Positions 4,393 through 37,371 of a stretch of DNA of 64,000 nucleotides are shown one piece after another. The stretch is from NCBI RefSeq assembly GCF_056746865.1, contig NZ_JBWKMP010000004.1; one strand, given 5' to 3'. This stretch comes from a plasmid. Within the stretch, counting starts at the first letter, position 1; each line of letters begins with the position of its first letter. The notes under the pieces were generated by a model. That model was not told the DNA's origin and did not search any database. It saw only the letters and a list, made by a program, of their open reading frames with translations. The translations under genes and the position numbers were made by a program.

Positions 4393-5212
4393 GGCACTGT
4401 TGCAAAGTTAGCGATGAGGCAGCCTTTTGTCTTATTCAAAGGCCTTACATTTCAAAAACTCTGCTTACCAGGCGCATTTCGCCCAGGGGATCACCATAAT
4501 AAAATGCTGAGGCCTGGCCTTTGCGTAGTGCACGCATCACCTCAATACCTTTGATGGTGGCGTAAGCCGTCTTCATGGATTTAAATCCCAGCGTGGCGCC
4601 GATTATCCGTTTCAGTTTGCCATGATCGCATTCAATCACGTTGTTCCGGTACTTAATCTGTCGGTGTTCAACGTCAGACGGGCACCGGCCTTCGCGTTTG
4701 AGCAGAGCAAGCGCGCGACCATAGGCGGGCGCTTTATCCGTGTTGATGAATCGCGGGATCTGCCACTTCTTCACGTTGTTGAGGATTTTACCCAGAAACC
4801 GGTATGCAGCTTTGCTGTTACGACGGGAGGAGAGATAAAAATCGACAGTGCGGCCCCGGCTGTCGACGGCCCGGTACAGATACGCCCAGCGGCCATTGAC
4901 CTTCACGTAGGTTTCATCCATGTGCCACGGGCAAAGATCGGAAGGGTTACGCCAGTACCAGCGCAGCCGTTTTTCCATTTCAGGCGCATAACGCTGAACC
5001 CAGCGGTAAATCGTGGAGTGATCGACATTCACTCCGCGTTCAGCCAGCATCTCCTGCAGCTCACGGTAACTGATGCCGTATTTGCAGTACCAGCGTACGG
5101 CCCACAGAATGATGTCACGCTGAAAATGCCGGCCTTTGAATGGGTTCATGTGCAGCTCCATCAGCAAAAGGGGATGATAAGTTTATCACCACCGACTATT
5201 TGCAACAGTGCC
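4393..5212 (-). mobile_element. IS26 (copy 1, 820 bp)
   Basis: 14-bp terminal IRs GGCACTGTTGCAAA at both ends; internal tnp26. Confidence 0.95.
4445..5149 (-). CDS. tnpA: IS26 transposase Tnp26
   Basis: 234-aa [31 protein letters not shown]... Confidence 0.95.
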   Translation of the reverse strand: MNPFKGRHFQRDIILWAVRWYCKYGISYRELQEMLAERGVNVDHSTIYRWVQRYAPEMEKRLRWYWRNPSDLCPWHMDETYVKVNGRWAYLYRAVDSRGRTVDFYLSSRRNSKAAYRFLGKILNNVKKWQIPRFINTDKAPAYGRALALLKREGRCPSDVEHRQIKYRNNVIECDHGKLKRIIGATLGFKSMKTAYATIKGIEVMRALRKGQASAFYYGDPLGEMRLVSRVFEM

Positions 5213-6297
5213 GCCGGCCCGAGATCATGGGGTGGGTGCTGGGCATCGTTTACCGCGTCATTGCCACGCACCTGGTCAAGAAAGCGGGCCATACCCACCA
5301 AGTGGCCAAGACGGGCGCGGTCACCCTGATCCAGCGTTTTGGATCGGCGCTCAATCTGAATGTTCACTTCCACATGCTGTTTCTCGACGGTGTGTATGTC
5401 GAGCAATCCCACGGCTCAGCGCGTTTCCGCTGGGTCAAGGCGCCGACCAGCCCAGAGCTCACCCAGCTGACGCACACCATCGCCCACCGGGTGGGTCGCT
5501 ATCTGGAACGGCAAGGCCTGCTGGAACGGGATGTCGAAAACAGCTATCTGGCCTCGGATGCGGTGGATGACGACCCGATGACACCCCTGCTGGGGCACTC
5601 GATCACTTACCGTATCGCTGTCGGTTCACAGGCGGGGCGAAAGGTGTTCACTTTGCAAACTCTGCCGACCAGTGGTGATCCGTTCGGTGACGGGATTGGC
5701 AAGGTAGCCGGGTCCAGCCTGCACGCCGGCGTGGCGGCCAGGGCCGATGAACGCAAGAAGCTCGAACGGCTGTGCCGGTACATCAGCCGCCCGGCGGTAT
5801 CCGAGAAGCGGCTGTCGTTAACACGAGGCGGCAACGTGCGCTACCAGCTCAAGACGCCGTACCGGGACGGCACCACGCACGTCATTTTCGAACCATTGGA
5901 TTTCATTGCAAGGCTGGCCGCCCTGGTACCGAAGCCCAGAGTCAACCTAACCCGCTTCCACGGGGTGTTCGCACCCAACAGTCGGCACCGGGCGTTGGTC
6001 ACGCCGGCAAAACGGGGCAGGGGCAACAAGGTCAGGGTGGCTGATGAACCGGCAACACCAGCACAACGGCGAGCGTCGATGACATGGGCGCAACGGCTCA
6101 AGCGTGTTTTCAATATCGACATCGAGACCTGCAGCGGCTGCGGCGGCGCCATGAAAGTCATCGCCTGCATTGAAGACCCTATAGTGATCAAGCAGATCCT
6201 TGATCACCTGAAGCACAAAGCCGAAACCAGCGGGACCAGGGCGTTACCCGAAAGCCGGGCGCCACCGGCTGAGCTGCTCCTGGGTCTGTTTGACTGA
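5213..6297 (+). pseudogene. ISCR2 (IS91-family rolling-circle) transposase, 5'-truncated by IS26
   Basis: frame continues from IS26 boundary; HMLFLDGVYV ... CSGCGGAMKVIACIEDPIVIKQILDHL matches ISCR2 transposase C-terminal portion from memory. Confidence 0.7.
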
Positions 6298-6327
6298 CGA
6301 GCCTGAAGGCCAACGATACCAATCAAA

Positions 6328-7212
6328 ATGCTGCGTTCACAGCGCCGCGGCAGGGATCCGCCGTGCTGGTTGTCGGAAAAGGAGCCGCTAGTGGGAAAGA
6401 GGAGGGTAAATTTTCAGCGTTGCTGGCTCCCCGTCAGCCGGATTGGGTTGCATCGCAGGGGTGTCGAAAGAGTCAACTGCGGTCCAAAGCTGTTGGACTT
6501 GGGTGAAAAGGGCGTTTATTCTTCCTATACGTGCCGCGTTCCAGGCGGCGACTATGAGGGCTATGTCGATGCCCATGTGCGCCGGCTGGAGGCGCTACGC
6601 CGGGCCGGTATCGTCGAGCGGATCGACGCCGACCAATGGCGCATCCCCAATGATCTGGTCAGCCGTGCCGCCGCCCATGACGCCGGCCGAGACAGTCAGG
6701 CCAGCGTTCGCGTCCTTTCCCCGGTCGATCTGAACAAACAGATCGGATCGGACGGCGCGACCTGGCTGGACCGGCGGCTGATCCACGGCGAGACGGCCGA
6801 CCTTGCGCCAACCGGCTTCGGGCAACAAGTCCGCGAAGCCATGGACCAGCGCCGCGAGCACCATATCGAACAGGGCGACGCCACCCGCAGCCGGGACAGC
6901 CGCGTCTTCTACCGGCGCAACCTTCTCGCCATCCTGCGGGAGCGCGAGGTAGCCGGCGTCGGATCGGATATGGCTTTGAGTAAGGGCCTGCCGTTCCGCG
7001 CCGCCACGGACGGCGAGAGCGTCAGCGGCAAGTTTACCGGAACCGTGCATCTATCGAGCGGCAAGTTCGCCGTGGTCGAGAAATCCCATGAGTTCACCCT
7101 TGTCCCGTGGCGGCCGATCATCGACCGCCAACTCGGCCGCGAGGTTATGGGCATCGTGCAGGGCGGGTCGGTGTCGTGGCAGTTAGGGCGGCAGAGGGGG
7201 CTGGAACGCTGA
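6328..7212 (+). CDS. conserved hypothetical protein of the floR module (often annotated as truncated virD2-like)
   Basis: ORF between ISCR2 end and floR, as in known ISCR2-floR contexts; start codon uncertain. Confidence 0.45.
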   Translation: MLRSQRRGRDPPCWLSEKEPLVGKRRVNFQRCWLPVSRIGLHRRGVERVNCGPKLLDLGEKGVYSSYTCRVPGGDYEGYVDAHVRRLEALRRAGIVERIDADQWRIPNDLVSRAAAHDAGRDSQASVRVLSPVDLNKQIGSDGATWLDRRLIHGETADLAPTGFGQQVREAMDQRREHHIEQGDATRSRDSRVFYRRNLLAILREREVAGVGSDMALSKGLPFRAATDGESVSGKFTGTVHLSSGKFAVVEKSHEFTLVPWRPIIDRQLGREVMGIVQGGSVSWQLGRQRGLER

Positions 7213-7428
7213 GTGCGCCCATGCCGCATTGCGAAGCAAAAGATAATCGGATAAAATGTAGCAATTCATATTCGTAAGCGTGGAGTAATCAGATGGGAAA
7301 TTCCAAGTCAGCAGACAAGTAAGCCGCAACAACCAGTATTGTTGTTGCGGCGCTCTGTAAGGCTAGTCTCATCTGATTGCTGACGAGCAGACGTCGCCCG
7401 GTATTCCTTAATCGAGGGTTGATTCGTC

Positions 7429-8643
7429 ATGACCACCACACGCCCCGCGTGGGCCTATACGCTGCCGGCAGCACTGCTGCTGATGGCTCCTTTCGACATC
7501 CTCGCTTCACTGGCGATGGATATTTATCTCCCTGTCGTTCCAGCGATGCCCGGCATCCTGAACACGACGCCCGCTATGATCCAACTCACGTTGAGCCTCT
7601 ATATGGTGATGCTCGGCGTGGGCCAGGTGATTTTTGGTCCGCTCTCAGACAGAATCGGGCGACGGCCAATTCTACTTGCGGGCGCAACGGCTTTCGTCAT
7701 TGCGTCTCTGGGAGCAGCTTGGTCTTCAACTGCACCGGCCTTTGTCGCTTTCCGTCTACTTCAAGCAGTGGGCGCGTCGGCCATGCTGGTGGCGACGTTC
7801 GCGACGGTTCGCGACGTTTATGCCAACCGTCCTGAGGGTGTCGTCATCTACGGCCTTTTCAGTTCGATGCTGGCGTTCGTGCCTGCGCTCGGCCCTATCG
7901 CCGGAACATTGATCGGCGAGTTCTTGGGATGGCAGGCGATATTCATTACTTTGGCTATACTGGCGATGCTCGCACTCCTAAATGCGGGTTTCAGGTGGCA
8001 CGAAACCCGCCCTCTGGATCAAGTCAAGACGCGCCGATCTGTCTTGCCGATCTTCGCGAGTCCGGCTTTTTGGGTTTACACTGTCGGCTTTAGCGCCGGT
8101 ATGGGCACCTACTTCGTCTTCTTCTCGACGGCTCCCCGTGTGCTCATAGGCCAAGCGGAATATTCCGAGATCGGATTCAGCTTTGCCTTCGCCACTGTCG
8201 CGCTTGTAATGATCGTGACAACCCGTTTCGCGAAGTCCTTTGTCGCCAGATGGGGCATCGCAGGATGCGTGGCGCGTGGGATGGCGTTGCTTGTTTGCGG
8301 AGCGGTCCTGTTGGGGATCGGCGAACTTTACGGCTCGCCGTCATTCCTCACCTTCATCCTACCGATGTGGGTTGTCGCGGTCGGTATTGTCTTCACGGTG
8401 TCCGTTACCGCGAACGGCGCTTTGGCAGAGTTCGACGACATCGCGGGATCAGCGGTCGCGTTCTACTTCTGCGTTCAAAGCCTGATAGTCAGCATTGTCG
8501 GGACATTGGCGGTGGCACTTTTAAACGGTGACACAGCGTGGCCCGTGATCTGTTACGCCACGGCGATGGCGGTACTGGTTTCGTTGGGGCTGGTGCTCCT
8601 TCGGCTCCGTGGGGCTGCCACCGAGAAGTCGCCAGTCGTCTAA
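7429..8643 (+). CDS. floR: florfenicol/chloramphenicol efflux MFS transporter FloR
   Basis: 404-aa ORF MTTTRPAWAYTLPAALLLMAPFDILASLAMDIYLPVVPAMPGILNTTPAMIQ... Confidence 0.92.
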   Translation: MTTTRPAWAYTLPAALLLMAPFDILASLAMDIYLPVVPAMPGILNTTPAMIQLTLSLYMVMLGVGQVIFGPLSDRIGRRPILLAGATAFVIASLGAAWSSTAPAFVAFRLLQAVGASAMLVATFATVRDVYANRPEGVVIYGLFSSMLAFVPALGPIAGTLIGEFLGWQAIFITLAILAMLALLNAGFRWHETRPLDQVKTRRSVLPIFASPAFWVYTVGFSAGMGTYFVFFSTAPRVLIGQAEYSEIGFSFAFATVALVMIVTTRFAKSFVARWGIAGCVARGMALLVCGAVLLGIGELYGSPSFLTFILPMWVVAVGIVFTVSVTANGALAEFDDIAGSAVAFYFCVQSLIVSIVGTLAVALLNGDTAWPVICYATAMAVLVSLGLVLLRLRGAATEKSPVV

Positions 8644-19489: not shown

Positions 19490-22126
19490 CTACAACGGCA
19501 GGGAGAACGAGGCGGTTTCGAGCGATTCTCCCTCATTCAGCCTGTTCTGCATGTCGCTGACGAAGGCATCCATCTGACTGTTGGCAAAGAATTTAATCCC
19601 GACCAGCCTGACGTCCTCATTTTCATCAATCACAATGCGCTCCCTGTCATTCAGCGTTTCCAGCATCTGCTCTTTCCATGCGTCATCCAGCAGCCGGTCA
19701 TCCCCCTTTGGCTCAAGGAACACCTGCCAGTAAGTGTTGTCCGAATGGCGCGTCAGTATCATGATGAAATCCGGCATAAACCCGCGCACGCCGCCGAACT
19801 CCGTGAGTTTAAAGCGCGTTGACTGCTCGTCGTTACGCAGTACGTAAATGTCGTCGTAACGCGCTTTCAGCTTCGGCATGAATGCTTCCAGCGTTTTCAC
19901 AAGGCGATGCTCAAGCTGGTTCAGTATCGCGTTATCGTACACGTACCATTTTTTACCGATGGTCGGTGCGGTGGTGATTTTCTGGTTAATGACCACCGAC
20001 GGGTCAATGTGCAGGCTGTAGTCTTTAATCACCTCCTTCACCGGCTGGCTGATAAAGCGGTACGTGCCTTTCACCTTCTGGTCATTGCGGCGTATGTTCT
20101 CTGAGATGCGCAGCAGCACAGTTTCCAGCAGGTGCAGTTTCTCTTTTGCCGGTACAGAGGAGAAATCCAGTGACTGCGGTACGGTGACGGTGATTTTTAG
20201 CTTGCCAAGATAGGCGTCACTGCGAATAAACTCACGGATGCCGGTCAGTTTCGGGAAGAAGCGTTGCAGGTTATCCAGCGCGTAGAAGCTGATCCTCTGC
20301 ATCGCCTTGCGGTAAAAACGCTCGTCCAGTACCAGGGGTTCCGGTTTTGTTATGACTGCCGTTGCGCCCGTCAGGTTGTCCAGCGACTCCTCACCGGCGG
20401 TCTGATACGGTATCTCAAAGCGTGTTTCCAGCGAGTAGGTTTCCCAGCGCCGGCTGCTGCTCTCAATCTCTTCCACTTTGTTGAAATACAGCTTACCCGT
20501 CTGATAGACCGTGGATTTCTTGAAGTCTTCTTTCAGTCTGGCGTGTTCAATCGTGCCGCTGCCATCCTGATGCACGTCAATGTCCGCCTGCTCTAATGAT
20601 GCGTGCAGCGTTTTTATATAAGCTGGTTCATTGATGGTGTGATAGTGCAGTTGCTCCAGCACACTCAAATCTTTCGCGCTGTTATCAAACCGGCGGGTGA
20701 AGCTGCGCTTACCGTCATAAACGAACGGGTAGTAACGCGCACCACGCCCGATAAGCTGCGCCTCGCTGTCCGTGCCGGTTTTGCTGCTGCTCGCCTGCTC
20801 GCTGATGCGGACAATGTCGTAGAGGTTGAGCACGTCCCAGCCTTCGTTGACCTTCGCCACGGCAAAGACGGCTCTCACCGGATTATCGATGTTTTCCAGT
20901 GTGTTCAGCAGGACGGGGTTTTCTTCCAGCAGGTCTGACTTGTTGACGTTCAGCAGGTTGAAGTCGTTAAAGTCTTCCTGAATCTGTTGGATAACCGTCA
21001 CTAAATCGCTGTCAGCGTAACGCTGAATCACTTTGTGCCAGATACTGGTGTCAGAGCTGAGCTGTACTCTTTTGTTCGCCAGGTGGCGTCTGACGCTCTC
21101 AGGCGTCATTGCCGCAATCAGTTGCGAAAACTCCTCCTGCTTCGCCTTTGATATCGCAATCTTGTTCGACTTGAACAGAATGACCGGCTTGAAGCCGGTG
21201 ATGCCGTTATCTGCTGCTGTCAGTTTACGGTACTGGCTTAACAGTACCGCATCGAGCATCTTGTCACCGTCATTCTGGTTGGCTTCCAGCAGCATGACTT
21301 TCTTCGAATAGCCGTCTGACATGAACTGCTTCAGGTCATACTGATAAACCACTTTGTCACGGTATTTTTGCCCGATATCTTTATTTGCCAGGTCAATGGT
21401 GGCGGTGAACTCGAACAGCCGGTTATCCGGTCGCAGGTCGAGGATGTTCTCAATCGTGCGTTCCCAGGTCTGCTCCTCGTTCTCCGGTGAGGTTTTCGAC
21501 TTTCCTCTGGCTTTGGTGCCGGCGTTGAAGTGATGCGCCTCGTCACCAAGCAGCACAAGCGGAATTTCCTTCAAATCCTCGTAGGTGATGCTGTTCTCAC
21601 GATAGCTGTTCAGCTCATCGTGCATCTTATGGATGGTTGAGAGCTTAAGGTAAATCGTGTTGCGTTCCGGTACGGACGGGAACGTCTCCACCGGTGCGAT
21701 GGTGATTTTTTCCCCGTCGATTTCCAGCTCCTGACTGAACAGGTACTTCGGCGACTGCGGATTCAGCAGGTTCTCACGGGTTTTCTGGATAATCGCGTCG
21801 GTATGCACGAAGAAGATAAAATTCTGATACCCGTACTCTTTAAACAGATAGAGTATCGTCCCCGCCATCACCATCGTTTTCCCTGCACCGGTTGCCATGT
21901 GAAACAGCAGATGACGGTAATGCAGCAGCGCCTCTTCACGTTTACGCTGCGTGTAATGCAGGTAACGCAGTGCACCGTGCTGATACGGACGCAGGGCATC
22001 CTTCAGATTCGCCTGAATGTAGTCCGGCGTCTGGTAGTTATCGTGGAACAGCCCCGGTTCATCAAATTGCTTCAGCTTGTTAAACAGCAGCTTCTCGCTG
22101 CCGGCTGAGGTCGGTTTCTTCGCCAT
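19490..22126 (-). CDS. res: Type III restriction endonuclease subunit Res (SF2 helicase + nuclease)
   Basis: 878-aa ORF with Walker A (MATGAGKTMV), DEAH box (LLGDEAHH); 4 bp downstream of mod. Confidence 0.85.
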   Translation of the reverse strand: MAKKPTSAGSEKLLFNKLKQFDEPGLFHDNYQTPDYIQANLKDALRPYQHGALRYLHYTQRKREEALLHYRHLLFHMATGAGKTMVMAGTILYLFKEYGYQNFIFFVHTDAIIQKTRENLLNPQSPKYLFSQELEIDGEKITIAPVETFPSVPERNTIYLKLSTIHKMHDELNSYRENSITYEDLKEIPLVLLGDEAHHFNAGTKARGKSKTSPENEEQTWERTIENILDLRPDNRLFEFTATIDLANKDIGQKYRDKVVYQYDLKQFMSDGYSKKVMLLEANQNDGDKMLDAVLLSQYRKLTAADNGITGFKPVILFKSNKIAISKAKQEEFSQLIAAMTPESVRRHLANKRVQLSSDTSIWHKVIQRYADSDLVTVIQQIQEDFNDFNLLNVNKSDLLEENPVLLNTLENIDNPVRAVFAVAKVNEGWDVLNLYDIVRISEQASSSKTGTDSEAQLIGRGARYYPFVYDGKRSFTRRFDNSAKDLSVLEQLHYHTINEPAYIKTLHASLEQADIDVHQDGSGTIEHARLKEDFKKSTVYQTGKLYFNKVEEIESSSRRWETYSLETRFEIPYQTAGEESLDNLTGATAVITKPEPLVLDERFYRKAMQRISFYALDNLQRFFPKLTGIREFIRSDAYLGKLKITVTVPQSLDFSSVPAKEKLHLLETVLLRISENIRRNDQKVKGTYRFISQPVKEVIKDYSLHIDPSVVINQKITTAPTIGKKWYVYDNAILNQLEHRLVKTLEAFMPKLKARYDDIYVLRNDEQSTRFKLTEFGGVRGFMPDFIMILTRHSDNTYWQVFLEPKGDDRLLDDAWKEQMLETLNDRERIVIDENEDVRLVGIKFFANSQMDAFVSDMQNRLNEGESLETASFSLPL

Positions 22127-22130
22127 GCCG

Positions 22131-24179
22131 TCACTCCATTCCGTAGAAGCTGCGGGTAAAGGCTTTATCGCTCTCTGAAATGTTCAGGTCACTGTCATCC
22201 ATATCGGAAGCGTTCACATAGAGCTGATTTTTATCGAGGATTTCAATCAGCAGTTGCTTCTGCTCATGCAGTTCCAGTTCGCTGAAGGCGACTTTACGGA
22301 AAATACCATCCACTTCGTACTCAGCCGACAGCACGTTCTCCAGTGCCACCTGATAGTTGAGATGTGCCTCTGTTTTCATCACGGCAAAGAGCTTTTCGAG
22401 TTCTTCAGTGGACTGCGCTTTCTGTATTTCATGCACAAAGTAGGCGTTCAGCTCCATCAGTTCAGCGTAGACAAAGCTGCCGCCACCCTGCCAGTTGATG
22501 TCTTTTGAGATCCCCCCCTGTTCACCTCCGATGACTTTTTGCAGGCGTGGTACCGTTATGTCGTTGATGTAATCCATCTGTTCAATACCAATGTAGCGAC
22601 GCCCCATCTTATGGGCTACTGCTGCGGTTGTTCCGCTACCTAAATGAAAGTCTAAGATTAAATCGCCTGCCTTTGTAGATAGCTCTATGACCCTTTTAAT
22701 TAACAACTCTGGTTTCTTTCCGTTTTCGAAACTTACATATCCACCTTCTTTATTTAAATTGTTATATTGGATGTCATCCCATAAGGTATTTATTTTCTGC
22801 ATGTAGTTATAACTTTCACCATTTTTCTCCAGCATGTCGGATAGGAACATAAACATATCTTTATTGCTGGCGTTGTAGAATATTTCAACTGGCGTTCCTT
22901 TGTTTTTCCCTTTTAATGGTGTGTACTCTACGCTAACAATGCCATTATTTATTTCTTCTAGTTCTTTTAGAACTCGGCCTCTGACACTGGATTGTGCATT
23001 TGTTGTTCTATAAACAATCCCTGCATAGTCTTTATATACGTCGTTTTCACTTATGCCTTTTTCTTTTGAAAATCTAGATATGGAGGTGGTTTTGGCATAG
23101 GGGTAGTGATTGTAAGTAACTCCATCTTCACTTTTTATGGGCGTTTTTGCACCTAAATCTAAGAGTATTTGAGTGTATTTCCAGCTCTTACCGCTATCCT
23201 TGTATTCATTTACATACTGAATTACCTCTGTTTTTTTGAAAACAGGGTTAAGCATGGCAAGTTCTTTTCTTTTCGAATATAAAATTATAAATTCAGTTGC
23301 ATCTCTTAAGCTTTTTCCTTCCGAGCTTCCAGATACACCACCTATCTTTGTTTTTATTGTTATAATATTGATGAAGTTTTCTACACCAAATATGTTATCC
23401 ATTAACACCTTCAAATGGAATAACTCGTTATCATCACATTGTATAAAAATAAACCCATCATCTGATAATAATTTAAGTGATGTTTCAAGCCTATTTTTCA
23501 TGAATGTTAACCACGTGGAGTGGTTAAATCTATCATTATATTTAAAGCTATCGGAACCAGTGTTATATGGAGGGTCAATATATATTAACTTTACCTCGCC
23601 TTTATGGGGGGTTATTAATGAATTAAGGGCAATTAAGTTATTTCCTTTGATGATTAAATTATCACTTTGATCAAAGTAAGATATATTGTTTTGTGCACCA
23701 TTTTTTGTATGTCGTTTAACATTAGTGAATACCTTTGGAGAGAAAAGTCGATCAATCTCATCACGAGCAATGATTTCATTGTAATAAATCTCATCTTTCC
23801 CCTGATTTTCTTTGGTCATTCCGCCTTCAAGAACACAATCCTTAAAAGGAAAGTCCAGCACCACATCAGAGCTGTAATCAAGGTATTTCCCTTCACTGGT
23901 TAATCCCACCTTGTTCCGGTATTTAGTGAAGCTGTTCGCCCAGTATTCTTTGTATTTAAGAAATTTGCATAAATTATCAAAATCAAAAATAAAAATTCCG
24001 TCTATATCCGTACCGTAAACAGCGCGGATTTTTTCATTCGCCACCAATGCCTTGATAAGGTCTGGCTGCTTTTGACTGATAGCGTCACTCACCATTGAAC
24101 GTTGTAATTCCTCTCCGTTCCAGAACTGCGGGAATGCTTTTAAAACCTTGTTAAGTTCTTTTATTAATTCTGTCTGCAT
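22131..24179 (-). CDS. mod: Type III DNA methyltransferase subunit Mod
   Basis: 682-aa ORF with DPPYN motif (LIYIDPPYNTGSD) and C-terminal AdoMet motif (FHLGSGTTAAVA); strongly AT-rich central segment (likely target-recognition domain). Confidence 0.85.
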   Translation of the reverse strand: MQTELIKELNKVLKAFPQFWNGEELQRSMVSDAISQKQPDLIKALVANEKIRAVYGTDIDGIFIFDFDNLCKFLKYKEYWANSFTKYRNKVGLTSEGKYLDYSSDVVLDFPFKDCVLEGGMTKENQGKDEIYYNEIIARDEIDRLFSPKVFTNVKRHTKNGAQNNISYFDQSDNLIIKGNNLIALNSLITPHKGEVKLIYIDPPYNTGSDSFKYNDRFNHSTWLTFMKNRLETSLKLLSDDGFIFIQCDDNELFHLKVLMDNIFGVENFINIITIKTKIGGVSGSSEGKSLRDATEFIILYSKRKELAMLNPVFKKTEVIQYVNEYKDSGKSWKYTQILLDLGAKTPIKSEDGVTYNHYPYAKTTSISRFSKEKGISENDVYKDYAGIVYRTTNAQSSVRGRVLKELEEINNGIVSVEYTPLKGKNKGTPVEIFYNASNKDMFMFLSDMLEKNGESYNYMQKINTLWDDIQYNNLNKEGGYVSFENGKKPELLIKRVIELSTKAGDLILDFHLGSGTTAAVAHKMGRRYIGIEQMDYINDITVPRLQKVIGGEQGGISKDINWQGGGSFVYAELMELNAYFVHEIQKAQSTEELEKLFAVMKTEAHLNYQVALENVLSAEYEVDGIFRKVAFSELELHEQKQLLIEILDKNQLYVNASDMDDSDLNISESDKAFTRSFYGME

Positions 24180-24365
24180 GTCATGACCTTATGACTGTTT
24201 AATATCTGAATGATTGTAAGATATAGCGTCCGGCGCTGGAACCCGACAGCGATGAGTTGAATTCAGTTGCGGGAAAATGCACCAGAATAAGTGGTATTTA
24301 ACATAAACTCTCTTACGCGCACCACCCGAACACCACTCACCACGAAAACACGCCGGAACACGTAA

Positions 24366-24442
24366 AAGGGGTCCGTTTGGGAAACGGACAATATTGTACG
24401 GCAAGCCTGTTTTTTGAACAGGCCAAATCATCGCAGTAGGGT
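24366..24442. repeat. 77-bp hairpin-containing segment (copy X) upstream of mod
   Basis: AAGGGGTCCGTTTGGGAAACGGACAATATTGTACGGCAAGCCTGTTTTTTGAACAGG...; inverted copy at 26891-26966. Confidence 0.8.
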
Positions 24443-24631
24443 ACGCCCTTTGTAGGTGCCGTCTTCGATGTGAGAAAGAGCGTCCAGCGATACCAGGCCC
24501 GAGAACAGCGTGAACTGCCGCAATGAGCTTTTGTATGCGTGGGTAACTATACCGCGCACTTCACGCGCGGTGCTCGGTTTTGAGGCCGAAAATTGCAGGA
24601 TCTCAAAGACGTGGTGTAGGGCTAGTGCCAT
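24428..24631 (-). CDS. small hypothetical protein (67 aa)
   Basis: ORF with AAGGA 6 nt upstream of ATG; last gene downstream of the uncharacterised cluster; no recognisable motif. Confidence 0.3.
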   Translation of the reverse strand: MALALHHVFEILQFSASKPSTAREVRGIVTHAYKSSLRQFTLFSGLVSLDALSHIEDGTYKGRTLLR

Positions 24632-24673
24632 GGGGCGTCCTTAAAATAAAGCCCCATAGCATGAGCAGTGTCG

Positions 24674-25081
24674 TTAGTCGTTAAACTCGCCATCTCGCAG
24701 TTGGCGATTGCCTTCAACAATTTCCCACGCACGATTTAACCCTTCACGCATCAGATCGAAAGTACAGTCGCGGTCGTTAGAATAGGCGCCGACAAAAATG
24801 ATGTATTCCATTTCAGGTTCGCCGAACTCAGGCGAGCAGCCAAAGTTATGGAAAGCCGCCTGCCATTTGCCATTGTTCTCATTCGGCATGTGGAAAAGCT
24901 GCATTGGACGCTCATTAGGTGAGAATTCTACAAAGCTCGCTGAACTACCTGCGGATAAGCCTACTCTGGAATGCCCATCAAAAAAGTAATTATGGGCACA
25001 TCTGATACCTTCCACATAGATCACCCGCCCATCTGGCAGCTTTTTCAGGACCAGGTACACTTCACGACGCTGAATACTCAT
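24674..25081 (-). CDS. hypothetical cytoplasmic protein (135 aa)
   Basis: ORF with AGGAA RBS 5 nt upstream of ATG; no signal peptide; no family recognised. Confidence 0.5.
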   Translation of the reverse strand: MSIQRREVYLVLKKLPDGRVIYVEGIRCAHNYFFDGHSRVGLSAGSSASFVEFSPNERPMQLFHMPNENNGKWQAAFHNFGCSPEFGEPEMEYIIFVGAYSNDRDCTFDLMREGLNRAWEIVEGNRQLRDGEFND

Positions 25082-25152
25082 TTTTATTCCTGTAGTTATG
25101 GGTAGCAGTGGAGAGTAAGAATGACCCCAGCCGGTGCCAAGGCCAAAGAACT

Positions 25153-25695
25153 TTAGCCAGCCAGGGAAAGGGCTTCTGCGATGGCTCGGTTGAACTCGGG
25201 GATCGCCTCATCGTAAGACATTCCGCCGCAGGGATGCTTGACGCAAGCCCATGTTACCGGCAGTTCCGGTAAGTGATCCCACATCTGATAGCCCAACACC
25301 AAAATGACATCGGGCCTCAGCTCGGCCACCACTTCTTCAAGCACAGTAGCTGCATCACGCCACATAGCACGCGTGGGACGTATACGGCCAGCATCGCCCA
25401 CAAACTCCTGAACGTAGTTGTAGAAGGCTACATGCTGCCAGGCTTCACGCCGTTCCTCTGCGGTCGGCTCGTCAGTTGTGCCTCGTAGCAGATTGGTGGC
25501 TATCGTGAAAAAACGAAGCCCTGGCTGGAAAGCATGCTCGTTAATAACGTGCTGGGTAAAGTCAGGGGCGTAGTCTTCCGGTTCACCATAGTGGGACTCA
25601 CCCAACACCATAACGCGGACGCCGTAGCGGCTTGAGTGATAATGGTCACCCACCCAAGGCTGAAATTTCACGCTGGAATTAGTTGCTGTTTGCAT
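25153..25695 (-). CDS. hypothetical protein with uracil-DNA-glycosylase-superfamily-like motifs (180 aa)
   Basis: N-terminal VMVLGESHYGEP resembles the UDG water-activating loop (GQDPYH) and C-terminal VKHPCGGMS resembles the HPSPLS motif; start overlaps upstream gene by 17 bp. Confidence 0.45.
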   Translation of the reverse strand: MQTATNSSVKFQPWVGDHYHSSRYGVRVMVLGESHYGEPEDYAPDFTQHVINEHAFQPGLRFFTIATNLLRGTTDEPTAEERREAWQHVAFYNYVQEFVGDAGRIRPTRAMWRDAATVLEEVVAELRPDVILVLGYQMWDHLPELPVTWACVKHPCGGMSYDEAIPEFNRAIAEALSLAG

Positions 25696-26128
25696 ACGTT
25701 ACATTCTCACACTTTGCATCACTGATGGGCATGGACGCATTATAAATATCCTCAAGTGCCAACGTTACCTCGCTTTTGCGCAAGATGGCGTCCCGCAGCA
25801 TCGTCAATCGGAAGTTAGAGCCTTTCCAGTAATACTCTTTGTACTTGTCATCTGCGACGAAACCGCCTTCTCGATGGCGTTCATACACGATAGGTGGCAT
25901 GCCCCCTTTGTCGGACGGGTGAAGCTCCAGCCAACGCTCATATTTTCCGTTCTCGTAGATTGTCAGCCGCTGCGCTGGGTCGGTCAACTTACCCCCGTCC
26001 AGCACCCACCGGCACATCATTGACGCTATTTCTTTTGCTGCGGGATCTATGGTTGATGGGGTGCCAGCATTAGCCTGGTAGGCCATAAGAAACGCCGCGG
26101 ACATAATGAGTGTGTGGCGTAGTTTCAT
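25679..26128 (-). CDS. hypothetical exported protein (149 aa, Sec signal peptide)
   Basis: N-terminus MKLRHTLIMSAAFLMAYQANA; AAGGGA RBS; 10 bp after upstream lipoprotein gene. Confidence 0.55.
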   Translation of the reverse strand: MKLRHTLIMSAAFLMAYQANAGTPSTIDPAAKEIASMMCRWVLDGGKLTDPAQRLTIYENGKYERWLELHPSDKGGMPPIVYERHREGGFVADDKYKEYYWKGSNFRLTMLRDAILRKSEVTLALEDIYNASMPISDAKCENVTYANSN

Positions 26129-26138
26129 GAGAGATCCC

Positions 26139-26678
26139 TTAGTTCAGATTGCATCCAATGCGGAAGGCATTGCCGATTTCAGTGTATTCAGCACGGCTTG
26201 CGCCCGTGAGCTTAGTGGCTTCACTGCTGAAGTGCGTATTGTCGCGGGTGCATTTTTCTGGCGTGGATTGCGCGCCTTTGAGGCACATAGAGTACGCAAC
26301 AGACGGATTAGCGAACTGGGTACGCTGGGCGTAGCCTTCGCACACAGCAGTTGCACGGGCCTGCTTCTGGCGCGCGGTCATCGGTTTGATTGCCTTACTA
26401 TTGGCAGCCTTCAGCTTATAGCAGCTCAGATTACGCGAGCGGGCAGCTGCCTCTAGGGCTTTTGAGCGGCTAAGATTGTCGTTGTATTCAGGATGGCTGG
26501 ATGGGTTAACATTCAGGCTCGGCTGTATCGCGTCAGATGCCTGGCAAAGTTGCTGATCGCTGTATCTGGCAATCTCCGCTGCCTCTATCGCGGCTTTGTC
26601 TGGATGCGGGGCTTTGGGTGCGGGAGTAGCGCATCCTGCTAATGCCAGCGCCAATGAGGCGGCTAATAGTCGTTTCAT
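26139..26678 (-). CDS. hypothetical lipoprotein (179 aa, lipobox LAGC, multiple Cys)
   Basis: MKRLLAASLALALAGCATPA... signal with lipobox; several cysteines suggesting periplasmic disulfides. Confidence 0.55.
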   Translation of the reverse strand: MKRLLAASLALALAGCATPAPKAPHPDKAAIEAAEIARYSDQQLCQASDAIQPSLNVNPSSHPEYNDNLSRSKALEAAARSRNLSCYKLKAANSKAIKPMTARQKQARATAVCEGYAQRTQFANPSVAYSMCLKGAQSTPEKCTRDNTHFSSEATKLTGASRAEYTEIGNAFRIGCNLN

Positions 26679-26890
26679 GGGTTCGAGTGCCCTGTATGCA
26701 AGTTGTAGAAGGGATCAGTTTAGAGATCGGAAATTATTGTACGTTCAGCGCGGTATTTAACCACTAATACCCGTAACGGATTGATTTAGAGCCAGTGGCT
26801 ATCGCTTTTAAATTATCGCCTAATCAGTATCGCATTTAGGTTATCCGATTAGCCAAAAACCGCGGAAAACGTCGTATAGCGCGGGAGTTC

Positions 26891-26966
26891 ACCCTACTGC
26901 GATGATTTCGACTGTTCAAAAAACAGGCTTACCGTACAATATTGTCCGTTTCCCAAACGGCCCCTT
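26891..26966. repeat. inverted copy (X') of the 77-bp hairpin segment
   Basis: reverse complement of 24366-24442 with a few mismatches. Confidence 0.8.
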
Positions 26967-27040
26967 AAATCTTCTCCGCTCCAAAATTGCGGAAACGCTT
27001 TTAAAACCTTGTTCAGTTCTTTGATTAATTCGGTCTGCAT
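26966..27040 (-). pseudogene. partial duplicate of mod 5' end (first ~22 codons) with diverged copy of mod promoter region upstream (27041-27240)
   Basis: encodes MQTELIKELNKVLKAFPQFW identical to Mod N-terminus, then fuses to X'-derived sequence (48-codon frame 26894-27040); upstream 200 bp is ~80% identical to 24180-24365. Confidence 0.7.
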
Positions 27041-27325
27041 GTCATGGCCTTATGACTGTTAGAGATTGAAATGATTGTAAGGTATCGCGTCCAATGCTGG
27101 AACCTGACAGTAATGCTGCTGATACAATTGCGGAAAAATGCACCAAAACAGGTGGTATTTAACATAAGGGATCTTACGCGCACCACCGATCAGGTACTCA
27201 CGACGAAAACACGTCAAAACGCGCAAAACAGCCTGTTTTCTGCCCCCAAAATTGGCTGTTTTTGTGTTGCCGGTTTGTTATCAAAACGACGGATATGATT
27301 TCAGCCAGCAAACGGGCTGAAACCT

Positions 27326-27775
27326 CTATTTTTTCCAGAATTTCCATGATTTTTTCACCATCGGCTGCGTGACAGGTTCTGGTGTTGCCGGTAGCTTGGA
27401 CTCTATCAGTAACAGGGCTTGCTTGAGATCCTCGTTGCGCTTGTCTTTTTCAGCGAGTAGGAGTTCTTTTTCACGCAGCAATGCCTTTACGAGTTCTATT
27501 TCAGCTTTTAAAGCATAGTTTTCATGCAGCAAATTCTGGTCAGTTAACTGTACGGATTCTCCTGCCAAACTCTGCACAGTGCTGCCTGATTGTTCACTGC
27601 CAAGTTGCTGACCAGTAAATGATCCGAAAACACGCAGAAGCTCTGATGTATCTAGCTTTGAAGAACCACTGCTATCTGTGCACTTGGTCAGTTTTCCCTG
27701 CTTAATGTATGACTGCACTGTTGTGCGACTTTTTCCTGTCAGTCTTGCGGCTTCGCTGATTGATACCAGTGCCAT
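27326..27775 (-). CDS. hypothetical HTH DNA-binding protein with C-terminal coiled coil (149 aa)
   Basis: N-terminal SISEAARLTGKSRTTVQSYIKQGKL helix-turn-helix-like; function unknown. Confidence 0.45.
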   Translation of the reverse strand: MALVSISEAARLTGKSRTTVQSYIKQGKLTKCTDSSGSSKLDTSELLRVFGSFTGQQLGSEQSGSTVQSLAGESVQLTDQNLLHENYALKAEIELVKALLREKELLLAEKDKRNEDLKQALLLIESKLPATPEPVTQPMVKKSWKFWKK

Positions 27776-36330: not shown

Positions 36331-37371
36331 CTTAAGCACTATGAAGGTATCATACACCTTCATAGTGTACTTTTTTACTGCGCTTTGGGGCTAAATTGTT
36401 TTTGTGAATAGCCAGAATATCGTGGCTACGGCGGCAATGGAAATATATGATCTCTGCTGCCAGAGACTGGAGATGTAATTGGGGGCAGTTTGGATATCGA
36501 AAATTATTGTACTATAAGGGGTCCGCTTGAGGGGGCCGCTTGGAAAACGGAAATTTTCCCACGCTAAGAGAATTGAGTTGAACGAGTGGTTACATCTAGG
36601 CCAGCTAACTCACTGAACGTAAAGGCTGTACGAAATGTTCCGACCGTCCGATAACCATTTGGCTTACTTCCGTACATTTCCTTGCGTAGATGTACAGAAT
36701 TGTACGATTTCGGACACCAAAACTGCTGTTGTCCCGGTGCATGAAGCTACTTTCCGGGTTGGTGGTACTGACTTTGGTGTTCTTAACGACGACGTTTTCA
36801 ACTCTGAAAATCGCCTCTCTGCACGGGGATTTTTACCCCCCCATAGAGCCGTCATATAAATTCAAATTATTAACTTTGATGGTAGAATTATCTTAGGTTT
36901 GATAAAATTTTGAGCCGTCGCCGTTTACTTCACAGGATTCAATATAATGGCTAAATATACAGTTTGTGATTACCAATAAACTATTAGAAATAATGGGAAT
37001 GGTTGTGCCAATCTCTATCTGGAGGTCTTATTGCAGGGAACATCCACCCCATCGTTACACCAATACAGAATTGCCCCCGATACAAGACATCCAGACATTA
37101 ACCTAATAAAAGCGCACCTTGACGAGGGCTTTCAGCAGGCAAAGTCTGAGGGATTAAAAGTAGAGATTTCAGATTATAAAGAACGTCTTTACCTGTACAT
37201 TAGAACACCTGGTAATAACCTAATGCAATATTCTGGTTGCAGAGAAAAATAATACAGTCGCGCTGGATACGCTGACATTGACGCAGTTATATGATTTTCT
37301 GGCGTTGGTCAGTAAACCAGCTGCAGCCAAAACGGTGTAGTCCCTGACACAGGCGCCGGTCATTCTGTTAA

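Follow-up and report, generated by a model that had tools for sequence, protein, structure and literature searches.

We analysed a 64,000-nucleotide stretch of plasmid DNA (the window; contig NZ_JBWKMP010000004.1 of RefSeq assembly GCF_056746865.1), in which five small genes, here called the cargo, lie upstream of mod, the modification gene of a Type III restriction–modification (R-M) system. The cargo is enclosed by an inverted pair of hairpin-bearing repeats, which we identify as the ends of a non-autonomous transposon, T, bounded by sequences of a Tn3-derived inverted-repeat miniature element (TIME). T in turn separates two direct repeats, A and A', each of which carries a mod upstream region. 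The features of this region are listed below, where IRL and IRR denote the left and right inverted repeat (IR) of a TIME.

24180-24367, minus strand: A, the upstream region of the live mod gene
24368-26964, minus strand: unit T, a TIME-COMP-like, non-autonomous transposon of the Tn3 family, 2,597 bp, with IRL ends facing inwards on both sides and five genes
24368-24442, plus strand: left end of T, an IRL fragment of 75 bp from a MITESen1-like TIME (alignment to ISfinder MITESen1)
24368-24405: 38-bp IR of the left end, GGGGTCCGTTTGGGAAACGGACAATATTGTACGGCAAG, followed by the conserved hairpin CCTGTTTTTTGAACAGG
24428-24631, minus strand: cargo gene 5, a 67-aa open reading frame (ORF), the 5' part of a longer gene that the IRL fragment truncates
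24674-25081, minus strand: cargo gene 4, 135 aa, without family match
25153-25695, minus strand: cargo gene 3, 180 aa, predicted uracil-DNA glycosylase (UDG) superfamily fold (AlphaFold2, Foldseek, Pfam)
25679-26128, minus strand: cargo gene 2, 149 aa, without family match; hydrophobic N terminus, signal-peptide-like as read from the sequence
26139-26678, minus strand: cargo gene 1, 179-aa predicted lipoprotein with N-terminal lipobox LAGC (ORF list; weak Pfam LPAM_1 match)
26711-26964, minus strand: complete MITESen1-like TIME, 254 bp (full-length alignment to MITESen1)
26711-26748: IRR of the complete TIME, GGGATCAG...GTTCAG, its tip changed from GGGG to GGGA
26928-26964: IRL of the complete TIME, 37 nt, ending GGTAAG, with a 1-nt deletion (GGGGCC for GGGGTCC)
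26966-27040, minus strand: mod' stub, codons 1-25 of a second mod allele of the MOBQ-plasmid type, which T interrupts
27041-27228, minus strand: A', the upstream region of the dead mod', unbroken into the native backbone

The inverted arms (24369-24442 and 26891-26964) are 74 nt long, 95% complementary and 2448 nt apart, a similarity that is not due to chance (blastn E 2e-29); an initial annotation of this DNA had reported such a hairpin repeat, and both of the stem-loops it named are present in each copy. Each end comprises a 38-bp Tn3-type terminal repeat of the form GGGG...TAAG, to which the GTCCGTTT-GGG-AAACGGAC stem-loop belongs, and, immediately inside the IRL, the conserved hairpin of the family, CCTGTT-TTTTG-AACAGG. 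Alignment identifies the arms as IRL ends of a relative of MITESen1, a TIME of 256 bp (PMC13367494; ISfinder sequence taken from Table S2 of Gomi and Yano 2026). The reverse complement of 26711-26964 is identical to MITESen1 at 201 of 256 positions (78.5%) over the whole length, including the internal region, and is on this alignment a diverged MITESen1 variant. It falls within the 50-500 bp size range and contains no transposase gene and no ORF of at least 45 aa wholly inside it. No 5-bp direct repeats surround the TIME itself (flanks GTAGA and TTAAA), and with its IRR tip mutated it now serves only as one end of T. The left IRL fragment adjoins the truncated gene.

A distant search with window positions 26706-26969 matched about 3,000 PLSDB records at 70-85%, always as an unannotated element of about 255 bp that starts with GGGG, ends with CCCC and has terminal IRs of about 38 bp of the Tn3-family form GGGG...TAAG. 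Thousands of intergenic plasmid matches of about 260 bp also brought to mind a single-strand promoter of the Frpo/ssi kind, defined by a long stable hairpin in single-stranded DNA (ssDNA) in a leading region upstream of ssb/psiB-type genes. This candidate was rejected: the ssDNA fold was no better than that of shuffled sequences (z -1.0 and -0.9), copies occur in unrelated contexts (for example upstream of blaNDM-1) and not in leading regions, and the ends are Tn3-type IRs. A search of window positions 24000-27500 against Rfam gave no match at E values up to 1. Tn5403, present in the relative pCF1807-7, was dismissed as a parent because its IRs differ.

Several other copies were noted in passing. 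Plasmid pRJF866 carries a 98% MITESen1 copy at 5006-5262, between rmtC and blaNDM-1, which its record leaves unannotated. In Klebsiella pneumoniae p_dm693b_NDM5 (around 6006-6066), a truncated IRL-plus-hairpin fragment of MITESen1 lies beside a resolvase-like remnant and a Type I R-M system; MITESen1 fragments that terminate just past the hairpin seem to recur. Scaffold1 of Yersinia ruckeri ATCC 29473 (6355-7175) contains an IR near-identical to the IRL variant of T (GGGGTCCGTTTGGGAAACGGGTAATATTGTACGGTAGG), followed by sequence like the MITESen1 interior and then by a serine recombinase gene, an arrangement that hints that this interior may derive from the IR-res-tnpR end of some Tn3-family transposon. 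This IR was the sole match to the IRL variant in a scan of a genome collection, and no tnpA lies near it.

Comparison with IncN plasmids revealed that T has moved. Positions 4918-7515 of p5435N match window positions 24367-26964 at 99.5%, and the homology stops at both IR tips, whose outer ends are intact in the window (GGGG at 24368 and 26964). The junctions in p5435N read ...CCTTTACTA / GGGG...CCCC / CTACTACGATG, that is, TACTA, T and (C)TACTA in succession, a 5-bp target duplication with one extra C at the right junction; this base outside the complete TIME is variable, being a thymine in the window (26965) and C in IncN. The empty site reconstructed by removing T, one TACTA and one extra C is 100% identical over 294 bp to IncN plasmid NZ_CP022277.1 and is covered to at least 80% by 70 records. 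The same segment with the same ends, the target duplication and the empty site together show, at the level of sequence comparison, that T transposed as a unit with a Tn3-type 5-bp duplication; the initial annotation was thus right that the repeats bracket a discrete cargo unit. In p5435N (4584-4919), T interrupts the 3' end of a small gene downstream of relaxase and DUF6710 genes; elsewhere the intact product of this gene carries the Pfam domain TnpC_reg (PF28119). The cargo of T was found in 108 PLSDB records, and in about 80 records the region and the window are collinear. Thousands of assemblies are indexed as having the last cargo protein, and the sampled contexts were of the window type or the IncN type. 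In the window itself, T is flanked by TAAAA on the left and TTAAA (or TAAAT) on the right, without a duplication.

T shares several properties with TIME-COMP units (Szuplewska 2014, PMC4133298; Gomi and Yano 2026, PMC13367494): Tn3-type 38-bp IRs at both outer ends with a MITESen1-family element at one boundary, a kilobase-sized, plasmid-borne body lacking a transposase gene and, in the IncN context, a 5-bp target duplication with an empty site. It differs from them in having only one complete TIME, in the mere 78.5% identity of that TIME to the reference, in that both outer ends are IRLs, and in the missing direct repeats in the window. Since one boundary is a complete TIME and the other an IRL fragment, we use the label TIME-COMP-like. 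Known units bounded by MITESen1 carry qnrS1, floR and qnrD1, whereas the cargo of T consists of five uncharacterised genes, one with a predicted UDG-like fold, and no resistance gene. The survey by Gomi and Yano was limited to units carrying antibiotic resistance genes (PMC13367494), so T would not be listed there.

The second set of repeats is direct. A (24100-24367) and A' (26961-27228), at a spacing of 2861 bp, are 82% identical in alignment (blastn within the window, E 2.4e-58); the core match of 24105-24326 to 26966-27187 also stands at 82%, and the similarity runs precisely up to the outer edge of the hairpin copy on the left. A second mod upstream copy of about 80% identity had been claimed in the initial annotation and is confirmed by this alignment. 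The duplicated mod start that it described is likewise real and lies in a fused 48-codon ORF (26894-27040, minus strand) beginning MQTELIKELNKVLKAFPQFWSGEDL, but extends over 25 codons, not 20-22. The right end of T breaks the second mod allele after codon 25, and the two flanks of T map about 264 bp apart within a single A-mod region. Each repeat contains a mod promoter region, a core site for the recombinases XerC and XerD, and a mod start; terminator and promoter scans returned nothing in A, in A' or on the hairpins.

Analysis of small relatives placed the two copies in different groups. The left part of A and the 5' end of the live mod fall with R-M modules carried by ColRNAI plasmids of 6.8 kb (88-98%). 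The MOBQ plasmids pCF1807-7 and pKM0706b are the group to which A'-left and the mod' stub belong (85-90%), and the 41 bp of A that adjoin T go with pKM0706b (83%). By this grouping A and A' are shown to be one region from two lineages of small Type III R-M plasmids, and their 18% divergence thus reflects two plasmid lineages, not the decay of a recent duplication. This agrees with the recombination footprint from two related Type III loci that had been proposed from the letters of the window. The order found in small-plasmid relatives, rep-HTH-A-mod-res-mobX (HTH, a helix-turn-helix gene), is uninterrupted.

A core site for site-specific recombination lies in each repeat:

24296-24323, minus strand: XerC/XerD core in A, GGTGCGCGTAA-GAGAGT-TTATGTTAAAT
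27157-27184, minus strand: XerC/XerD core in A', GGTGCGCGTAA-GATCCC-TTATGTTAAAT

These were the only two matches to the XerC/XerD pattern in the 64-kb window, and 100 shuffles gave none. Relative to the Escherichia coli dif sequence GGTGCGCATAATGTATATTATGTTAAAT (PMC2731167), the XerC arm matches at 10/11 and the XerD arm at 11/11 positions. The central regions of the two cores differ at 4/6 positions (GAGAGT vs GATCCC), and that of the A' core is shared by pCF1807-7 and pKM0706b. The left end of T lies 44 bp beyond the XerC arm of A, or 41 bp beyond a 16-bp block common with A'. In every small relative a single core of this kind precedes mod by about 145 bp; what reads as a "mod promoter region" would thus be a multimer-resolution site plus the mod promoter. 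Homology between the ColRNAI and MOBQ plasmids starts no more than 2 nt from the outer edge of the XerC arm and stops 47 bp after res, which suggests that the Type III R-M module may have been exchanged at Xer sites.

Recombination between A and A' has also removed the cargo. Seven PLSDB records have a cargo-free structure in which mod and A-left are joined directly to A'-right and HTH, and in all seven the crossover is the same, within the 16-bp block that includes the XerC arm (24311-24326). Autonomous plasmids of 9,396 bp account for two of these records; another, pZY-1, shares the window coordinates up to mod, and pMB8775_3 matches the cargo-bearing pL3995-5 on both sides. A further plasmid, p1493-3, has a different crossover, in an 11-bp block (24342-24352), and keeps about 30 nt of A-right, sequence that among the records examined otherwise only adjoins T. 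Since this crossover is distinct from that of the seven records, the junctions show, as read from these alignments, that A-A' recombination deleted the 2,861-bp module (T and the mod' stub) at least twice independently, in at least eight plasmids. Both crossovers fall in the two rightmost of eleven A/A' identity blocks, adjoining the Xer core, for which the chance is about 0.04 if crossovers are proportional to block length; with two events only, this is a hint at most. The first crossover is compatible with either XerC-initiated exchange or short-homology recombination, while the position of the second means that it cannot be a core-site event.

The cargo itself appears to be a piece of an ordinary plasmid operon. 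None of the five genes matched NCBIfam, PADLOC or PHROGs, and Pfam returned nothing significant. For the 180-aa protein, AlphaFold2 gave a model with a mean pLDDT of 94.8, whose top Foldseek matches in the PDB are MUG, TDG and UdgX (E 5e-5, TM about 0.55); Pfam adds a weak UDG match (E 0.014). The protein has at least 357 homologues on plasmids and chromosomes, an unnamed family in which GESHYG and HP motifs are invariant; we take these to resemble UDG motifs A and B. A Citrobacter portucalensis plasmid (CP101078.1, 4006-6720) carries the first three cargo genes (179, 149 and 180 aa) at 80% identity, in a longer operon downstream of a resolvase gene. This operon also includes a 171-aa gene whose start is matched at 92% identity by window positions 24440-24642. 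The operon match and the truncated 171-aa gene indicate that T captured a piece of a plasmid operon, of which the CP101078.1 operon is probably the source. Read by eye, the IRR of the TIME contains a TACAAT hexamer, a candidate for an outward promoter, some 65 nt ahead of the first ATG of the cargo.

The whole arrangement sits in a captured plasmid fragment:

18032-28022, strand not assigned: small MOBQ plasmid fragment inside the resistance region (blastn against the 9,396-bp NZ_CP021721.1; pECB11 annotation)
19490-24179, minus strand: intact Type III R-M genes, mod 22131-24179 and res 19490-22126
27326-27775: HTH gene, native backbone
16064-17842, minus strand: truncated Tn3-family tnpA, C-terminal 574 of 954 residues

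The IncFII/IncFIA resistance plasmid pECB11 (NZ_KY865321.1) matches the window with identical coordinates. The fragment runs in the order truncated mobA, mobX, res, mod, A, T, mod', A', HTH and truncated rep, and is cut by IS26 at its right end; intact relatives of 9.3-13 kb have rep-HTH-(spacer of about 285 bp)-mod-res-mobX-mobA, uninterrupted. PADLOC recognised mod and res as MTase_III (E 1e-251) and REase_III (E 1e-240). A literature search found no report linking F33:A-:B- plasmids with a Type III system. The 64-kb window contains no intact Tn3-family tnpA, and T is thus immobile there without help in trans. The truncated tnpA lies about 190 bp from the left boundary of the MOBQ fragment (18032), with IS5075 nearby; this observation also takes in 14981-15985. 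Elsewhere in the window (36483-36568), two solo Tn3-family IR-like sequences stand in tandem, a MITESen1-like IR (GGGGGCAGTTTGGATATCGAAAATTATTGTACTATAAG) followed by an IR ending CACGCTAAG, and look like remnants of further TIME or Tn3-family insertions.

How T came to lie between halves of two related plasmids is best explained, in our judgement, by a cointegrate. Replicative transposition is the canonical mechanism of the Tn3 family. T would first have resided beside the Xer site of a plasmid W, the carrier of the present res-mod, and a Tn3-family transposase acting in trans would then have driven its replicative transposition into codon 25 of the mod gene of a co-resident related plasmid, Y. 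The product, a W-T-Y-T cointegrate, would directly hold the junction res-mod-A-T-mod'(1-25)-A'-HTH-rep. The flanks of T lie about 264 bp apart in donor-then-target order, which points to the left flank as the old donor junction and the right as the new target junction. This is as in the Shapiro model of Tn3-family cointegrate formation, in which one donor junction is kept and one target junction is new, and it explains non-identical 5-mer flanks about 264 bp apart in homologous DNA; here, unlike in that model, the cointegrate is deduced from its product, and neither reciprocal junction nor transposase has been observed. Because a res site has not been recognised in MITESen1 (PMC13367494), such a cointegrate would be expected to last. 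It could then have been trimmed, by homologous recombination within the backbone common to both plasmids, to mobX-res-mod-A-T-mod'(1-25)-A'-HTH-rep, after which IS26 would have captured the segment into resistance regions. We regard as probable the account in which the inverted repeats are TIME ends bounding a mobile T, A and A' stem from two lineages, a cointegrate joined them and A/A' recombination later deleted the module; the route itself is ranked by parsimony and known Tn3 biology.

Several observations weigh against this account. Neither parent was found, whether W, with T flanked by TAAAA on both sides, or Y, with an intact mod', and the reciprocal cointegrate junction is absent from PLSDB and from two metagenome scans, in which the uninterrupted mod' allele and the predicted junction of T with TAAAA gave no match each. 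No autonomous 12.26-kb cargo-bearing small plasmid was seen, the inspected copies all being either the IS26-truncated fragment or IncN. The plasmid pL3995-5 (24.7 kb), considered as a surviving cointegrate, is merely a resistance-region fragment. T is not a textbook TIME-COMP, as one boundary is a 75-bp IRL fragment in place of a second TIME copy, and its right IRL has a 1-nt deletion and a variable base outside. No cognate transposase was found, the window holding only the truncated tnpA. Finally, the cargo-free 9,396-bp plasmid could be an ancestor instead of a deletion product. As a simple ancestral empty site, both this plasmid and pMB8775_3 were rejected, because their A region is a chimera of A-left and A'-right.

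That ancestral role is central to a different history, which we consider distinctly unlikely: T, lying beside the Xer site of a plasmid Z with native A'-left and A-right, would have hopped into codon 25 of Z's own mod, and a 2,861-bp circle (T and 264 bp) would have entered the Xer/A region of the cargo-free 9,396-bp plasmid by XerCD or homologous recombination. pKM0706b does naturally join A'-left-like (85%) and A-right-like (83%) sequence, the 9,396-bp plasmids exist intact while no 12.26-kb plasmid was found, the main cargo-free junction lies within the block holding the XerC arm, and the proximity of the ColRNAI/MOBQ module boundary to that arm indicates that exchange at the site occurs in this plasmid group. 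Tn3-type transposition immunity, however, would be expected to disfavour intramolecular events such as the hop within Z. With central regions differing at 4/6 positions and flanking homology of just 82%, integration of a non-replicating circle should be rare, and p1493-3 demonstrates cargo-free forms arising by deletion. Two independent insertions of T, at the distal end of A in one plasmid and at mod' codon 25 in a relative, joined by recombination within the T copies, would give the same final structure and the same non-matching flanks, and T is demonstrably mobile. This explanation appears very improbable, as it needs two events no more than 264 bp apart in two relatives that subsequently came together, PLSDB contains neither of the parents with a single insertion, and a single replicative event gives the junction directly.

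Scarcely credible, in contrast to these histories, is a functional reading in which the hairpins act to invert the segment or to terminate transcription and the cargo operon recruited the duplicated promoter and leader of mod, as the initial annotation had proposed in part. It is true that the A' promoter region and its 25-codon leader point towards the cargo, and that CCCTTTT after the left stem-loop, read on the minus strand, comes close to a terminator; like the repeats of invertible switches and shufflons, the inverted pair brackets a gene block beside an R-M locus. However, none of the four stem-loops was reported by the terminator scan (in the best case TTTT begins three bases past the stem), and the suggestion that they are terminator-like is not upheld. 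Inversion across the repeats fares no better: the approximately 80 collinear PLSDB records include no inverted isomer, no recombinase or invertase gene is present at 24-28 kb, and the repeats, unlike those of such switches, are transposon termini present in thousands of plasmids. The mod-type promoter and leader aimed at the cargo are a structural fact but look incidental, as the IncN cargo unit has the same upstream TIME without any mod leader. Under the cointegrate account, this history produced the cargo-facing promoter and the stem-loops at the end of the cargo as side effects, not as designed regulation.

Each copy of A has an 11-6-11 XerC/XerD core like those of plasmid Xer sites (cer, psi) and Acinetobacter pdif modules (PMC5790767), and the XerC arm coincides with the main deletion crossover and with the inter-family boundary of the R-M module. 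The differences are that pdif modules have inverted XerC/D-XerD/C pairs whereas the window cores are direct repeats from duplication, that the central regions differ, that the second deletion crossover lies outside the core, and that the Xer role is putative. Only tentatively, and as a rather unlikely possibility, do we propose the 2,861-bp segment between the direct cores to be a cassette that can be excised and integrated by Xer recombination.

T, in the Xer/mod scar of a Type III R-M plasmid, adds a previously undescribed member to a known kind of element, and it indicates that MITESen1-type elements mobilise ordinary plasmid operons, beyond resistance genes. It goes unannotated in about 100 sequenced PLSDB plasmids (the 108 records). 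Annotation pipelines miss all of these features. The duplication beside the Type III R-M system of widespread CTX-M/fosA3 resistance plasmids is explained as a scar of transposition and recombination. If the segment does behave as an Xer cassette, TIME transposition and host XerCD would cooperate in moving cargo and in swapping Type III R-M modules between small plasmids of enterobacteria, and would give this group a counterpart to the pdif modules of Acinetobacter. The coincidence of the Xer core with the R-M module boundary is the part most worth pursuing; it makes the question of whether XerCD or RecA governs module gain, loss and exchange in small enterobacterial plasmids a testable one.

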